From the sequence record MT446422.1: DNA of 64,000 nt. The stretch is one strand, 5' to 3'. The notes beneath the pieces were generated by a model. It did not search any database. It saw only the letters and a list, made by a program, of their open reading frames with translations, and was not told the DNA's origin. The translations under genes and the position numbers were made by a program. This DNA is from Escherichia virus TH57. Shown here piece after piece: positions 12,336 to 50,477 of this stretch (its first letter is position 1; each line of letters opens with the position of its first letter).

Positions 12336-13008
12336 AATTAATTGCGATTGTGGGTAAAAAACGCAGTGGTAAAGATACGACTGCTGATTATGTTATTAGT
12401 CAAAACGGAACAAAGTGGCAGCTTGCGGGTCCGATTAAAGAAGCGCTTTATAAAGCGTGGATTCGTCAAGACCTACCACACAATTTGACCCTGGAAAATT
12501 TTGATGGACAAGGTTATGACCGTGAAAAAACCTTAATAATGAACAACACCGAAGCTTATATTCTTCTGGTTGATGCTCTTGAATGGTTGAAACAACAATA
12601 CAATCTTGACCTTCCGAATCCAGATATGGTTCGTAAAATCATTGAATTTCACACACTAAATAATGTTGAGCCCTGGACAGTTAGACGTTTCATGCAGACC
12701 CTTGGAACTGACATTGTTTGTACAGAGTTCGACAGCATGTTTTGGATTAAAACTTTTGCATGCGACTATCTTGACAACCTCTATTCTGGATATAAATATT
12801 ACGTTGTCCCAGATGTTCGCCAAAAGAACGAACTTGATTCGCTTCGGGCGATGGGTGCTACAATAATTTTTGTAGAACGCGATGAAGCAAATCATTCTAC
12901 TGATACACACATTACGGAAGCTGGACTTCCACCACTAGCTAGTGACATTGTTATTAAAAACAATGGCACACTCGAAGAACTTTTTGATAAAATTAATAAG
13001 GTAATATA

Positions 13009-25590: not shown

Positions 25591-26041
25591 GAAAAACAAG
25601 GTGAAAGAATTATCTGCTGGCATTATTTTCATGACTGAAGATAAAGAGTTATTCATGGGTCGTGTGACCGGTTCTCGTAAACCAGGTATGCCTGCACACA
25701 AATGGGACATCCCTAAGGGTCATGTTGAAGCTGATGAATCCCCGATTGAAGCTGCTATCCGTGAAACTGAAGAAGAAACTGGGTTTACCCAATATGACCC
25801 AGCATTCTTAAAGGACCTGGGTGAATTTCGTTATTCAGATAATAAAAACCTTCACCTGTTTTTGTACACGGTTCCGGTCGAGCATGAGCAGTTCAGACAT
25901 AGTAAATGCTCTGCCTATCATACCTTCCCGGATGGTAGTTCAGTCCCCGAGTTTGATGCATTTGCTCTGATTAAACCGAGCCAATGGCAATACGTAATGG
26001 GTAAATCGATGTACAAGGTAATGACTCAAATTTTCGGATAA
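25583..26041 (+). CDS. nudE: Nudix hydrolase NudE
   Basis: Nudix box GHVEADESPIEAAIRETEEETG; directly upstream of endolysin e as in T4; ATG at 25583. Confidence 0.85.
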   Translation: MSKKNKVKELSAGIIFMTEDKELFMGRVTGSRKPGMPAHKWDIPKGHVEADESPIEAAIRETEEETGFTQYDPAFLKDLGEFRYSDNKNLHLFLYTVPVEHEQFRHSKCSAYHTFPDGSSVPEFDAFALIKPSQWQYVMGKSMYKVMTQIFG

Positions 26042-26068
26042 TAAATACCCCTATATAAGGGGGGTATT

Positions 26069-26560
26069 ATGAATATATTCGAAATGTTACGCATAGATGA
26101 AGGTTGTAAGTTGGATTTGTACCGTGACACCGAAGGCTTTTGGACCATCGGCATCGGTCAATTGATAACTAAGAACCCATCGAAAGACGTTGCTCGCGCT
26201 GAGCTGGACAAATTAATGGGTCGTGTTTGCAACGGTAGGATTACCCAGATTGAAGCTGAAACCTTGTTTAACCGTTCAGTGGAAAAAGCTAAAGCCGGAA
26301 TCTTGAAACATCCTGTCTTAAAACCTGTTTATGATGTACTGGATGAAGTTCGTCGTTGCGCACTCATTAATATGGTATTCCAAATGGGTGTAGCTGGTGT
26401 AGCTGGTTTTCCTAAGGGGCTGCGATTGCTCAAGGCTAAATCATGGGAAGCTGCTGCTAAGGAACTGGCTGACTCAAGATGGTATAAAGTCCAGACTCCG
26501 AACCGGGCCAAACGAGTTATTGAAACTTTCCGTACTGGAACTTTTGACGCATACAAATGA
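26069..26560 (+). CDS. e: endolysin (T4 lysozyme, gene e)
   Basis: [12 protein letters not shown]...DTEG..TIGIG...PNRAKRVI matches T4 lysozyme closely, with catalytic Glu11/Asp20/Thr26 positions conserved. Confidence 0.95.
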
Positions 26561-32660: not shown

Positions 32661-32936
32661 ATGATATATAAGATTTGGACGTATATCTCTATTTTTGTTA
32701 TTGCTGGAATTGCATTTATCCCCACACAAACAGATAGCGAGAGATATGAAAGGGAAATTGAAATAGTAGCAAGCACGTATCATTCTGTTAATAAAGAATG
32801 CCCGAATAAAAATGGAATAAATTTACAAAAAGCACATTATATGCTGACTGTTACTAGTCCGGTGCAAAGAATATGGGTTGATAGCCATTTTTCTGATTTA
32901 TTTGCAATATATTGTTTCAAGTTTAAAAGATTATAA
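32661..32936 (+). CDS. small membrane protein
   Basis: N-terminal TM helix IWTYISIFVIAGIAFI. Confidence 0.45.
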   Translation: MIYKIWTYISIFVIAGIAFIPTQTDSERYEREIEIVASTYHSVNKECPNKNGINLQKAHYMLTVTSPVQRIWVDSHFSDLFAIYCFKFKRL

Positions 32937-41803: not shown

Positions 41804-42035
41804 AGAATATGTTGAGACCGCCGAAAGGGTGGTCCGTGAATTAACTCTGGCCTATTATAAAGAACACGGCAAATTTCCGGATAGTTATTCGGTATTGAAA
41901 TCTGCTTTAACTCGTTCATATAATAATATCCTTACTGAAGTGCATGATATCAGAAATGCGCACCTTAAAGAAACCGGAACAGAGCTTGACCGCTCTGAAG
42001 TATTCAAACAAGTATTAGGAATTCAAGATGTTTAA
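41775..42035 (+). CDS. hypothetical protein
   Basis: 86 aa ORF; start uncertain (41775 or 41790). Confidence 0.4.
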
Positions 42036-42291
42036 AGTATATGGCTATGATTCAAACATTCATCGTTGTGTTTTCTGCGACAATGCAAAACGTCTACTTG
42101 ACGTTAAAAAACAGCCTTACGAATTCATCAACGTGATGCCTGAAAAAGGTGTGTTTGATGATGAGAAGATTGCTCAACTCCTGGCTGCACTTGGTCGCGA
42201 ATCCCAAATTGGTTTGACTATGCCACAAGTGTTTGCTCCTGACGGAAGTCATATTGGTGGCTTCGACCAACTGCGAGAATATTTCAAATGA
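42028..42291 (+). CDS. nrdC: glutaredoxin NrdC
   Basis: [24 protein letters not shown]...[21 protein letters not shown] matches T4 NrdC; 87 aa. Confidence 0.9.
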
Positions 42292-43103: not shown

Positions 43104-43220
43104 AACCATGGTATACCGCTCGATGGGAAACTGTCGAGCCAGAGGAACCTGTTTACAACGATTCCGAAATAGATTATAATGAACCTTCAAACAATGATTT
43201 AATCGATATGGAGTTTGGAT

Positions 43221-43394
43221 ATGAGTACCAAAATTGAAGTTGGCCGCCACAAAGGTCGTTTAATTGAACATTCACTTTACGAATTGTCGGATTCTCGTAA
43301 GTTACCCGATGAAGAATCTGCTTTAATTTTTGCCGCGGCGGATTATATCCATTGGCTTGAAGCACAACTTCGCTTTTCTGATGAGGTCTTTTAA
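43221..43394 (+). CDS. small hypothetical protein (57 aa)
   Basis: ATG at 43221; stop overlaps the next gene start (TAATG). Confidence 0.35.
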   Translation: MSTKIEVGRHKGRLIEHSLYELSDSRKLPDEESALIFAAADYIHWLEAQLRFSDEVF

Positions 43395-43663
43395 TGTTTT
43401 TAGAAATTGTTAATATTCATGCTGCTCAATCAGGTTTTATGAAAGAGCTTCAAGACGCAGGATTTAAAAATGGCGATGTTATCCAGGCGTTAAGACAACG
43501 TTTTGACCCTGATGTTGAATGTAATGTTTGGGACGTTGTTGAAACAGATGAATACCTTTTTGATACCATAGAAATTGAAGGGTCATGGACTTGTATCACT
43601 GAGTATATGATAATTGATAATGGTAACGTTGAATGCCATTATCCTTGTTTTAGGATTGTTTAA
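43394..43663 (+). CDS. hypothetical protein
   Basis: 89 aa ORF. Confidence 0.45.
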   Translation: MFLEIVNIHAAQSGFMKELQDAGFKNGDVIQALRQRFDPDVECNVWDVVETDEYLFDTIEIEGSWTCITEYMIIDNGNVECHYPCFRIV

Positions 43664-43839
43664 TGAAAACTAAATTAGTCTATACTGAAAAGTTAAATGG
43701 TGCCAAGGTCTGGAAACTTCTTATCAAAGGAAGTCCTACTGACCAGTTTATGGCCACCTGTGTGGGATTGTATACTCGCCCTACCAAAAAGATGATTCGT
43801 CAATTTAAACGGTTGCATCGCTCGTTCTATAATATTTAA
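43663..43839 (+). CDS. small basic protein (58 aa) upstream of gene 49
   Basis: ATG at 43663 overlaps the upstream stop. Confidence 0.35.
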   Translation: MKTKLVYTEKLNGAKVWKLLIKGSPTDQFMATCVGLYTRPTKKMIRQFKRLHRSFYNI

Positions 43840-43874
43840 TAAATACCCTTATCTAATAATGGTAAGGGTTTATT
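43838..43874 (+). promoter_or_regulatory. hairpin sequestering the gene 49 RBS, with a late-promoter-like AATAAATA at its 5' edge
   Basis: ACCCTTA...TAAGGGT stem (43845-43851 / 43863-43869); the 3' arm contains the AAGGG Shine-Dalgarno 6 nt before the ATG. Confidence 0.5.
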
Positions 43875-44348
43875 ATGTTGTTGACTGGCAAATTATACAA
43901 AGAAGAAAAACAAAAACTTTATGATGCACAAGCTGGTAAGTGTCCAATTTGCCACCGTGATTTGGACTCTGATGTTCAGGCCAACCATCTTGACCATGAC
44001 CACGAATTGAACGGGCCAAAAGCCGGTAAGGTTCGCGGGTTACTATGCAATCTGTGCAATGGAACAGAAGGGCAAATGAAGCATAAGTTCAGCCGTTCGG
44101 GTCTGAAAGGTCGTGATGTTGACTACCTGGAATGGTTGGAGAGTTTGCTTGTCTATCTGAAATCTGATTATACCGAAAACAATATTCACCCCAATTTTGT
44201 AACAGACAAAGCCAAAGAGTTTGGCCGCCTGGGGAAAGAAGAAATGATTCGGGAAATGCTTTTGAATGGTATGACTTATAATGAATCTGACACCAAAACA
44301 CAATTAATGGCTTCATTTAAGAAGCAGCTTAGAAAGAGTTTAAAATGA
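43875..44348 (+). CDS. 49: endonuclease VII (Holliday junction resolvase gp49)
   Basis: MLLTGKLYKEEKQKLYDAQAGKCPICHRDLDSDVQANHLDHDHELNGPKAGKVRGLLCNLCN matches T4 endo VII; 157 aa. Confidence 0.95.
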   Translation: MLLTGKLYKEEKQKLYDAQAGKCPICHRDLDSDVQANHLDHDHELNGPKAGKVRGLLCNLCNGTEGQMKHKFSRSGLKGRDVDYLEWLESLLVYLKSDYTENNIHPNFVTDKAKEFGRLGKEEMIREMLLNGMTYNESDTKTQLMASFKKQLRKSLK

Positions 44349-46162
44349 CAATTGAAAACGAAATTGAAGGATTGATTCATAAAACTAATAAAGACCTTTT
44401 AAACGAGAATGCTAATAAAGATTCTCGTGTTTTTCCAACTCAACGTGACCTTATGGCTGGTATTGTATCTAAACACATTGCCAAAAATATGGTCGCGTCT
44501 TTTATTATGAAAGCACATGAAAGCGGAATTATTCATTTCCATGATATTGATTATTCCCCTGCTCTTCCATTTACTAATTGCTGTTTAGTAGATTTAAAAG
44601 GAATGCTTGAGAACGGATTTAAGCTTGGTAACGCACAGATTGAAACTCCTAAATCAATTGGTGTTGCTACTGCAATTATGGCACAAATTACTGCACAGGT
44701 TGCTTCTCACCAATATGGTGGAACGACTTTTGCTAATGTAGACAAAGTATTTTCTCCTTATGTTAAACGTACATACGCAAAACATATTGAAGACGCAGAA
44801 AAATGGCAAATCACTGATGCATTGAATTATGCCCAATCTAAAACAGAAAAAGACGTATACGATGCATTCCAAGCTTATGAATACGAAGTAAATACTCTCT
44901 TTAGTTCAAACGGACAAACGCCTTTTGTAACCATTACATTTGGTACGGGAACTGACTGGACTGAACGAATGATTCAGAAAGCAATTCTGAAAAATCGTAT
45001 CAAAGGTCTTGGTCGCGATGGGATAACTCCTATTTTCCCTAAACTTGTTATGTTCGTTGAAGAAGGTGTTAATCTTTATAAAGACGACCCGAACTATGAT
45101 ATTAAGCAGCTTGCTCTAGAGTGTGCAAGCAAAAGAATGTATCCTGATATTATTTCAGTTAAGAATAATAAAGCTATCACCGGTTCATCTATTCCTGTTT
45201 CTCCAATGGGTTGCCGTAGTTTCTTGAGCGTATGGAAAGATTCGACTGGTAATGAAATTCTTGATGGACGTAATAATCTTGGCGTTGTAACACTGAATCT
45301 TCCTCGTATTGCATTAGATTCTTATATTGGAACACAGTTCAATGAACAGAAATTTATCGAATTGTTTAATGAGCGAATGGATTTATGTTTTGAAGCATTG
45401 ATGTGCAGAATTAGTTCCTTAAAAGGAATTAAAGCGACTGTTGCTCCTATTCTTTACCAAGAAGGTGCGTTCGGGGTTCGTCTTAAACCTGATGATGATA
45501 TAATTGAGTTATTTAAAAACGGTAGAAGTTCAGTGTCTTTGGGATACATTGGTATTCACGAATTGAATATTCTTGTCGGTCGTGATATTGGGCAGGAAAT
45601 TTTAACTAAAATGAATGCTCGTCTTAAGCAGTGGACCGAAAGAACCGGTTTTGCTTTTAGCTTGTATTCTACTCCCGCTGAAAACCTTTGTTATCGATTC
45701 TGTAAACTTGATACTGAAAAATATGGAAGTGTAAAAGATGTTACCGATAAAGGATGGTACACTAACAGTTTCCATGTTTCAGTAGAAGAAAATATTACTC
45801 CGTTTGAAAAGATTTCTCGCGAAGCACCATATCATTTCATTGCGACAGGTGGTCACATTTCTTATGTTGAACTTCCTGATATGAAAAATAACTTAAAAGG
45901 TCTTGAGGCTGTATGGGATTATGCTGCACAACATTTAGATTATTTTGGTGTTAATATGCCAGTAGATAAATGTTTTACGTGTGGAAGTACCCATGAGATG
46001 ACTCCTACTGAAAACGGATTTGTTTGTTCTATTTGTGGAGAAACTGACCCTAAAAAGATGAACACAATAAGAAGAACATGCGGCTATCTTGGAAACCCGA
46101 ACGAACGCGGATTTAATCTCGGCAAAAATAAAGAAATCATGCATAGGGTTAAACACCAATGA
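44345..46162 (+). CDS. nrdD: anaerobic ribonucleoside-triphosphate reductase NrdD
   Basis: 605 aa, same length as T4 NrdD; C-terminal Cys cluster CFTCGSTHEM...CSICG; followed by nrdG. Confidence 0.9.
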   Translation: MTIENEIEGLIHKTNKDLLNENANKDSRVFPTQRDLMAGIVSKHIAKNMVASFIMKAHESGIIHFHDIDYSPALPFTNCCLVDLKGMLENGFKLGNAQIETPKSIGVATAIMAQITAQVASHQYGGTTFANVDKVFSPYVKRTYAKHIEDAEKWQITDALNYAQSKTEKDVYDAFQAYEYEVNTLFSSNGQTPFVTITFGTGTDWTERMIQKAILKNRIKGLGRDGITPIFPKLVMFVEEGVNLYKDDPNYDIKQLALECASKRMYPDIISVKNNKAITGSSIPVSPMGCRSFLSVWKDSTGNEILDGRNNLGVVTLNLPRIALDSYIGTQFNEQKFIELFNERMDLCFEALMCRISSLKGIKATVAPILYQEGAFGVRLKPDDDIIELFKNGRSSVSLGYIGIHELNILVGRDIGQEILTKMNARLKQWTERTGFAFSLYSTPAENLCYRFCKLDTEKYGSVKDVTDKGWYTNSFHVSVEENITPFEKISREAPYHFIATGGHISYVELPDMKNNLKGLEAVWDYAAQHLDYFGVNMPVDKCFTCGSTHEMTPTENGFVCSICGETDPKKMNTIRRTCGYLGNPNERGFNLGKNKEIMHRVKHQ

Positions 46163-49919: not shown

Positions 49920-50477
49920 ATGAACGAAATTAAATTAACCAAGAATAACTATGTAAATAATAAAGAGCTTTTGAAAGCTATTTCGGAGTGGAAACAGAAG
50001 CTGAATGCGAACACCGACCCGAACAAAATTATTCGCCAGAACGATGTTATTGGTCTGGCGATTATGCTTATAGCCGAAGGTCTTAGCAAACGTTTCAACT
50101 TCTCCGGATATACCCAATCCTGGAAGCAAGAAATGATAGCAGACGGAATTGAGGCCGCAATAAAAGGTCTTCATAACTTCGACGAAACAAAATACGATAA
50201 TCCACATGCTTACATAACAATGGCTTGCTTCAATGCTTTCGTTCAGCGTATCAAAAAAGAACGTAAAGAAATGGCAAAGAAATATAGCTACTTCGTCCAT
50301 AACGTATATGATTCACGTGACGACGATATGGTGGCTCTGGCTGATGAAACATTTATCCAGGACATCTACGACAAAATGACACAGTACGAATCCTCTTTAG
50401 TTAAAGCGCCAGGGTCTGATAAGAGCGCCAAAGATAAAGAAGGTGATTTGGATTTTTTATATGGAACATCAATTTGA
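49920..50477 (+). CDS. 55: late sigma factor gp55
   Basis: 185 aa; NYVNNKELL...[46 protein letters not shown]... matches T4 gp55. Confidence 0.95.

Follow-up and report, generated by a model that had tools for sequence, protein, structure and literature searches.

The leader of gene 49 in Escherichia virus TH57 (sequence record MT446422.1) very probably carries the Gaprivervirus-type orthologue of the early/late translational switch of phage T4 gene 49, in which a hairpin covers the ribosome binding site of endonuclease VII and a late-promoter box lies at the 5' edge of that hairpin. The analysis was made on a window of 64,000 nucleotides, that is, the whole stretch of DNA under study, and all positions given below are counted from its first letter. 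The device is already known, as its T4 orthologue was described in 1988, and the gene 49 switch opens no new question; our addition to it is modest and consists of the covariation of the helix across the family and the non-conservation of the internal start. Nevertheless, a classical T4 regulatory device proved recognizable here from sequence alone.

The region matched T4-like phages of the genus Gaprivervirus (the VR20, SP18 and VR7 group) with about 97% identity, and Tequatrovirus phages showed about 81% identity over the region and the gene 49 flanks. The 157-aa ORF downstream of the hairpin matched Pfam families PF02945 (Endonuclease_7, 6e-20) and PF09124 (Endonuc-dimeris, 2e-25), and its product shares 97-99% identity with endonuclease VII as annotated in Gaprivervirus phages, in agreement with the original prediction, which had taken this gene for endonuclease VII. 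Contiguous ORFs on the same strand lead from nrdC through gene 49 to nrdD and nrdG, a layout from which the transcripts of the block are predicted, and the order nrdC ... 49, nrdD is that of T4. The start of nrdD overlaps the stop of gene 49 (ATGA, 44345-48), and nrdG follows nrdD. The TAA stop of the 58-aa ORF upstream of gene 49 (43837-39) overlaps the late box, and the complete hairpin is present in any transcript that reads through this ORF. Past the hairpin, nrdD lacks a usable promoter-like site, the -10 element of the sole candidate ending beyond the nrdD ATG, so that transcription must pass through the hairpin. The window also encodes gp55, the late-transcription sigma factor, which would recognize the box in trans. 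The features are collected in Table 1.

Table 1. Positions of the gene 49 switch elements and of the neighboring genes within the 64,000-nt window.
Feature	Position	Strand	Basis or remark
nrdC	42028-42291	+	heads the run of small ORFs 5' of gene 49
58-aa ORF upstream of gene 49	43663..43839	+	DUF7279, phrog_3272
Late-promoter box AATAAATA, gp55 type, taken as -13 to -6	43838..43845	+	sequence
Core helix, 5' arm ACCCUUAUC (anti-SD strand)	43845..43853	+	MFE and centroid folds, covariation
Predicted late start (+1)	43851	+	predicted from the box at -13 to -6 (PMC1524935)
Loop UAAUAAU, 7 nt	43854..43860	+	fold; sole part unlike T4
Core helix, 3' arm GGUAAGGGU, with Shine-Dalgarno UAAGG at 43863-43867	43861..43869	+	fold
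SD-AUG spacer UUAUU, then AUG	43870..43877	+	folds of 40-, 101- and 141-nt segments
Gene 49, endonuclease VII, 157 aa	43875..44348	+	ORF, Pfam; gene under the predicted control of the hairpin
nrdD, 605 aa, one uninterrupted ORF	44345..46162	+	
Gene 55, late sigma factor	49920..50477	+	phrog_234 'late sigma transcription factor', 3.7e-68

The hairpin is built on a 9-bp core in which ACCCUUAUC pairs with GGUAAGGGU (43845-53 with 43861-69). Beyond a 2-nt bulge, a 5-bp outer stem is formed by AAUAA (43838-42) and UUAUU (43870-74), and in the 101-nt and 141-nt contexts the pairing extends further, 43829-37 with 43875-81, and includes the AUG. The elements named in the original prediction were all located where it had placed them, with AATAAATA at 43838-45, ACCCTTA at 43845-43851 pairing TAAGGGT at 43863-43869, and the ATG at 43875; the ACCCTTA/TAAGGGT stem described there is present, but the helix is larger than that stem, as it comprises the 9-bp core plus the 5-bp outer stem. 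The 40-nt segment 43838-43877 has a minimum free energy (MFE) of -12.7 kcal/mol compared with a mean of -4.9 kcal/mol for its shuffles (z -3.74; 0 of 200 shuffles as stable), and just 1.3% of all 40-nt segments on both strands of the 64 kb fold equally well.

Access to the Shine-Dalgarno (SD) sequence in these folds depends on the 5' end of the transcript. With 5' ends at 43600-43820, the probability that the SD is unpaired, taken as the mean over 43863-69, was 0.01, that of the AUG was about 0.06, and opening the stretch from SD to AUG (43863-77) cost 15.9-17.9 kcal/mol; the proposal that the hairpin sequesters the gene 49 SD in transcripts started upstream is thus borne out by folding. The core helix still formed with 5' ends at 43838-43845 (SD unpaired with probability 0.01-0.03). 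With 5' ends at 43849-43855 the helix was gone, the probability for the SD rose to 0.3-0.67 (0.5-0.67 from 43851 onwards), and the cost of opening SD to AUG fell to 2.7-4.0 kcal/mol. The series therefore switches at 43847-43849, just 5' of the predicted +1 at 43851, and a transcript beginning at this predicted start has its SD unpaired with a probability of about 0.6 and an opening cost of about 3 kcal/mol. The AUG is unpaired with a probability of about 0.5 with late 5' ends, and the late-type RNA, at an MFE of -2.9 kcal/mol, is no more stable than its shuffles (z +1.3 and +2.5). The comparison of early and late 5' ends, which had been put forward as a way to check the idea, accordingly gave an SD that is buried in the former (0.01) and largely freed in the latter (about 0.6 at 43851). 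The size of the effect on translation is inferred.

The box AATAAATA differs from the perfect late-promoter sequence TATAAATA by an A at -13. In T4 the late-promoter box covers positions -13 to -6, and T(-13) shows little conservation among T4 relatives (PMC1524935); the 50 T4 late promoters listed in PMC2988020 include 32 perfect ones and nine with A(-13) instead of T, A at this position being the commonest T4 late-promoter variant. The single mismatch noted in the original prediction is therefore real and is no weakness, as T4 gene 49 uses the same box: AATAAATA is identical there, so that the box with one mismatch is T4's own. With the box at -13 to -6, the predicted +1 falls 6 nt past the box, at base 7 of the nine that make up the 5' arm. 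This position, 43851, agrees with the proposal that a late transcript would start within the 5' arm, and folding from there frees the SD.

On the other hand, the box by itself is statistically unremarkable. In the 64-kb window AATAAATA was found 5 times against 8.6 expected and TATAAATA 5 times against 5.7 expected, so neither sequence is enriched. The significance of the box derives from its position next to the hairpin, from the masking of the ribosome binding site by that hairpin and from the conservation of this arrangement. One feature counts against the late-promoter reading: the CCC just 3' of the box is not A+T-rich, whereas T4 late promoters usually have an A+T-rich context just downstream of the box (PMC2988020). 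The + strand from 42547 to the hairpin contains no further late-like box at one mismatch or less, and the nearest perfect late box upstream of the hairpin is at 32932; late starts 5' of the hairpin, which would contradict the switch as originally proposed, are thus without obvious support close upstream in the sequence. A sigma-70-like site at 43804-43833 (TTTAAA-18-TATAAT, 10/12) was considered as a competing promoter and rejected: it is absent in VR20 and in T4, sigma-70-like sites in the window are no commoner than in shuffles, and RNA started from it (~43840) keeps the whole core helix, with a probability of 0.02 that the SD is unpaired. A search of the literature for modern genome-wide maps of T4 start sites yielded nothing usable.

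In the mechanism that we propose, early and middle transcripts would start upstream, read through the block from nrdC to nrdD and carry the hairpin in full. Its 5' arm (43845-53, with outer pairing to about 43829) would pair with the SD and also, when the transcript is long, with the AUG, binding of the 30S subunit would be blocked, and no full-length endonuclease VII would be made early, while the same early RNA would still serve the downstream genes nrdD and nrdG. Once replication begins, RNA polymerase with gp55 would use AATAAATA (43838-45) and start at about 43851. The resulting late RNA would be without six of the nine bases of the 5' arm, leaving no helix and a free ribosome binding site, and endonuclease VII would be made late, when branched DNA must be resolved for packaging.

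To analyze the conservation of the arrangement, viral contigs were scanned twice with gp49, and the scans covered proteins from 99% to about 47% identity and a few distant non-T4-like homologues. The first scan yielded 46 loci (52-99% protein identity) with 29 distinct leaders, and across roughly 40 distinct T4-like leaders the box is kept and the stem covaries. All 29 leaders of the first scan contain N[A/C/T]TAAATA, and the core [A/C/T]TAAATA was also found in more distant T4-like groups. Positions 3-8 of the box (TAAATA) are invariant in 29/29, the sequence 5' of the box being unalignable between groups. In every one of these leaders the box abuts the 5' arm, which begins 0-2 nt before the box ends, the predicted +1 is located 6-8 nt into that arm, and the SD is within the 3' arm. 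Their early-type folds range from -16.6 to -29.7 kcal/mol and their late-type folds from -0.6 to -6.5 kcal/mol.

The stem sequences, on the other hand, vary widely. About 20 different complementary arm pairs occur across T4-like phages, and divergent examples are CCCUUAUC/GGUAAGGG, GUUCAUC/GAGGUGAAC, CUCUUAUC/GAGGUAAGAG, CCUCUAUA/UAUAGAGG and GAGUCAU/AUGACUC. In a MAFFT alignment, 89.6% of the cells were paired, whereas sliding the partner by 1-3 columns gave 38-44%. Both bases vary in four of the nine pairs (51 cells), and covariation scored 0.447 against 0.07-0.13. A covariance-model alignment, built from a search with a stricter threshold and freed of reverse-strand matches to the palindromic stem, gave 94% paired, compared with about 40% for slid controls, and a covariation score of 0.476. 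RB43-like leaders follow the same logic with ACACC/GGUGU arms, and RB43-like, putative 44RR-like and putative Aeh1-like loci have unrelated stem sequences with the logic kept. In the putatively Aeh1-like group (contigs of about 220-233 kb) the box reads CTAAATA, which is the published Aeh1 late-promoter consensus (PMC1524935, PMC2988020). The box thereby appears to track the lineage-specific late-promoter (gp55) specificity, as with CTAAATA in Aeh1-like phages. The device is under strong selection, as box and helix persist in very divergent T4-like phages even though the sequence of the stem turns over.

Some loci showed other layouts. In L102 (about 540-600) the loop holds the TATAAATA box, with the 5' arm, UUCCUCCAAUA, upstream of the box, and in L107 (about 550-612; putatively 44RR-like) the AUG and the first codons are in the stem, with the SD in the loop. 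The distant non-T4-like homologues (L111-L117) had no recognizable box beside the gene start.

In the T4 annotation, gene 49 has a nested product of 105 aa (NP_049693) whose start is the internal GTG at codon 53. This codon (44031-44033) reads GTT here, as it does in most T4-like relatives, and GTA in one close T4 relative. The original prediction that the known T4 gene 49 switch is reproduced in this DNA consequently holds for the box, both arms and the spacer, which are identical, but not for the nested proteins of T4, since the internal GUG is GUU. The nested protein appears, from the codons compared, to be specific to the T4 lineage, which suggests that the internal-start product of T4 is not a general feature of T4-like phages. 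As the internal GUG is absent, the hairpin would in this phage be the sole determinant of any gene 49 product from early RNA. A wider joint reading, to which we give about even chances, is that box and helix form a deeply conserved, co-evolving module, that this module is the only gate where there is no GUG, and that the 12-kDa protein of T4 is a lineage-specific oddity. If this were true, phages without the internal GUG would make no gene 49 product early.

We consider it improbable that the hairpin is mainly a rho-independent terminator or attenuator which ends the upstream early unit and overlaps the ribosome binding site only incidentally. It shares with rho-independent terminators a stem-loop and U-rich sequence, which pattern scanners pick up: the consensus scan flagged 43845-43869 with the tail TTATTATGTT as terminator-like (hairpin plus UUAUUAUGUU), and in the clade of the window and T4 four of the first five bases past the stem are U. 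Moreover, the homologous hairpin of phage vB_EcoM_OE5505 is annotated as 'putative transcriptional terminator, ARNOLD' (MK373785). However, the U-rich tail is not conserved while the helix is, the stem of most relatives running straight into the AUG, and in L039, L043-L045, L047 and L048 there are at most three U in the next eight bases after the stem. What is conserved is the SD or AUG in the 3' arm and the box abutting the 5' arm. The hairpin further differs from rho-independent terminators in that its U tract is interrupted (UUAUUAUG) as well as non-conserved, and in that essential downstream genes need read-through, nrdD overlapping the gene 49 stop and having no usable promoter-like site after the hairpin; four of the nine stem pairs are G-C. 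Termination as the conserved function is rejected on the basis of the non-conserved U tail, and a secondary, partial attenuator effect could still exist in this clade. The feature annotated in vB_EcoM_OE5505 (L049, 494-516; MK373785.1, 44596-44618) is 23 nt long, lies 8 nt 5' of the gene 49 start and sits in the intergenic gap between pin/DUF7279 and gene 49, which is the position of the hairpin. The terminator label in MK373785 is probably a mis-annotation of a stem that sequesters the ribosome binding site, and automatic 'terminator' annotation of this element is probably misleading.

Two further readings leave the box without a role. According to one, the hairpin would be an RNA processing or stability element (an RNase target or a 3' protective stem) and AATAAATA a mere A+T-rich sequence, as would fit the fact that AATAAATA is not over-represented in the window and that 5' ends from T4 primer extension cannot always separate initiation from processing (PMC2988020). 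We judge this very unlikely, because TAAATA is invariant in the 29 leaders despite unalignable sequence upstream and a changing stem, because most of the invariant box bases lie outside the core helix, so that pairing does not explain them, and because the box becomes CTAAATA exactly in the lineage whose late promoters use CTAAATA (PMC1524935). The gene 49 leader contains no GGAG site for RegB, and an Rfam search of 43500-44100 with E up to 10 gave chance-level matches only, all far below the gathering scores and without a family match. The other reading, a functionless chance inverted repeat in A+T-rich intergenic DNA, we find scarcely credible. Short hairpins are indeed common, as 5% of 40-nt segments reach -10 kcal/mol or better, but this one is set apart by its z score of -3.7 and by the small fraction of segments that match its stability, and its helix is kept with compensatory changes down to about 47-50% gp49 identity; the covariation among the compared leaders effectively refutes a chance repeat already. 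Both readings are disfavored by the same combination of invariant unpaired box positions, a lineage-specific change of the box and a covarying stem, and the early/late translational switch is the reading that we retain.

Comparison with T4 itself shows how closely this switch is shared. The leader of T4 gene 49 (AATAAATACCCTTATCTATTTAAGGTAAGGGTTTATTATG in NC_000866) matches the present one in 37 of 40 bases; the box, both arms, the SD and the SD-AUG spacer are identical, and all three differences fall within the loop, which is UAUUUAA in T4 and UAAUAAU here. It occupies the orthologous position directly 5' of endonuclease VII, in the same context of upstream tail, gene 49 and nrdD. The flanks differ in two respects: the gene 5' of gene 49 is pin in T4, whereas here it is the 58-aa DUF7279 ORF with its stop overlapping the box, and nrdD is split in T4 by a group I intron with I-TevII but is free of introns here. 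An intact pin gene is not present in 43215-43839. Residues 102-145 of T4 Pin are matched by a 59-aa ORF (43215-43394) and residues 144-160 by the final 17 aa of the 58-aa DUF7279 ORF (43663-43839), and an 89-aa ORF (phrog_17711) lies between these two ORFs; the match of residues 144-160 in the 58-aa ORF indicates that the gene 49 leader travels together with the C-terminal tail of T4 Pin.

For the late promoter and ribosome binding site hairpin of T4 gene 49, PMC2988022 and PMC2988021 cite Barth, Powell, Trupin & Mosig 1988. An RNA helix that sequesters the SD and/or AUG is listed for gene 49 as well as for e, soc and I-TevI (PMC3014915), and for gene e and I-TevI the helix is present in transcripts initiated upstream and absent from those of the late promoter (PMC3014915, PMC2988022). 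The T4 genes e, soc and I-TevI share the logic of gene 49, in that a late gene in an early/middle polycistronic unit has its SD or AUG sequestered and the position of a late promoter deprives the late RNA of the 5' strand, but their sequences and genes are unrelated to gene 49.

The window contains further leaders that can be set beside these. Within 12791-12853, a perfect TATAAATA is followed by a structured 52-nt leader that precedes a 52-aa ORF, which could be a chance ORF; this structure survives the late start (-13.3 vs -11.5 kcal/mol). The gene 49 covariance model gave a single match in the window, at 43838-72, and did not match the leader of gene e. The lysozyme gene e of the window (ORF 26069-26560) has a switch of the same type at 26040-26071 (AATAAATACCCCTATATAAGGGGGGTATTATG), with an A(-13) box, and its helix goes from -10.8 kcal/mol to 0 in RNA from the predicted late +1. 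Nine NATAAATA boxes precede ORFs in the window, and a helix that is abolished by the late start follows only two of them, those of gene 49 and gene e, which are the classic T4 cases of such a switch.
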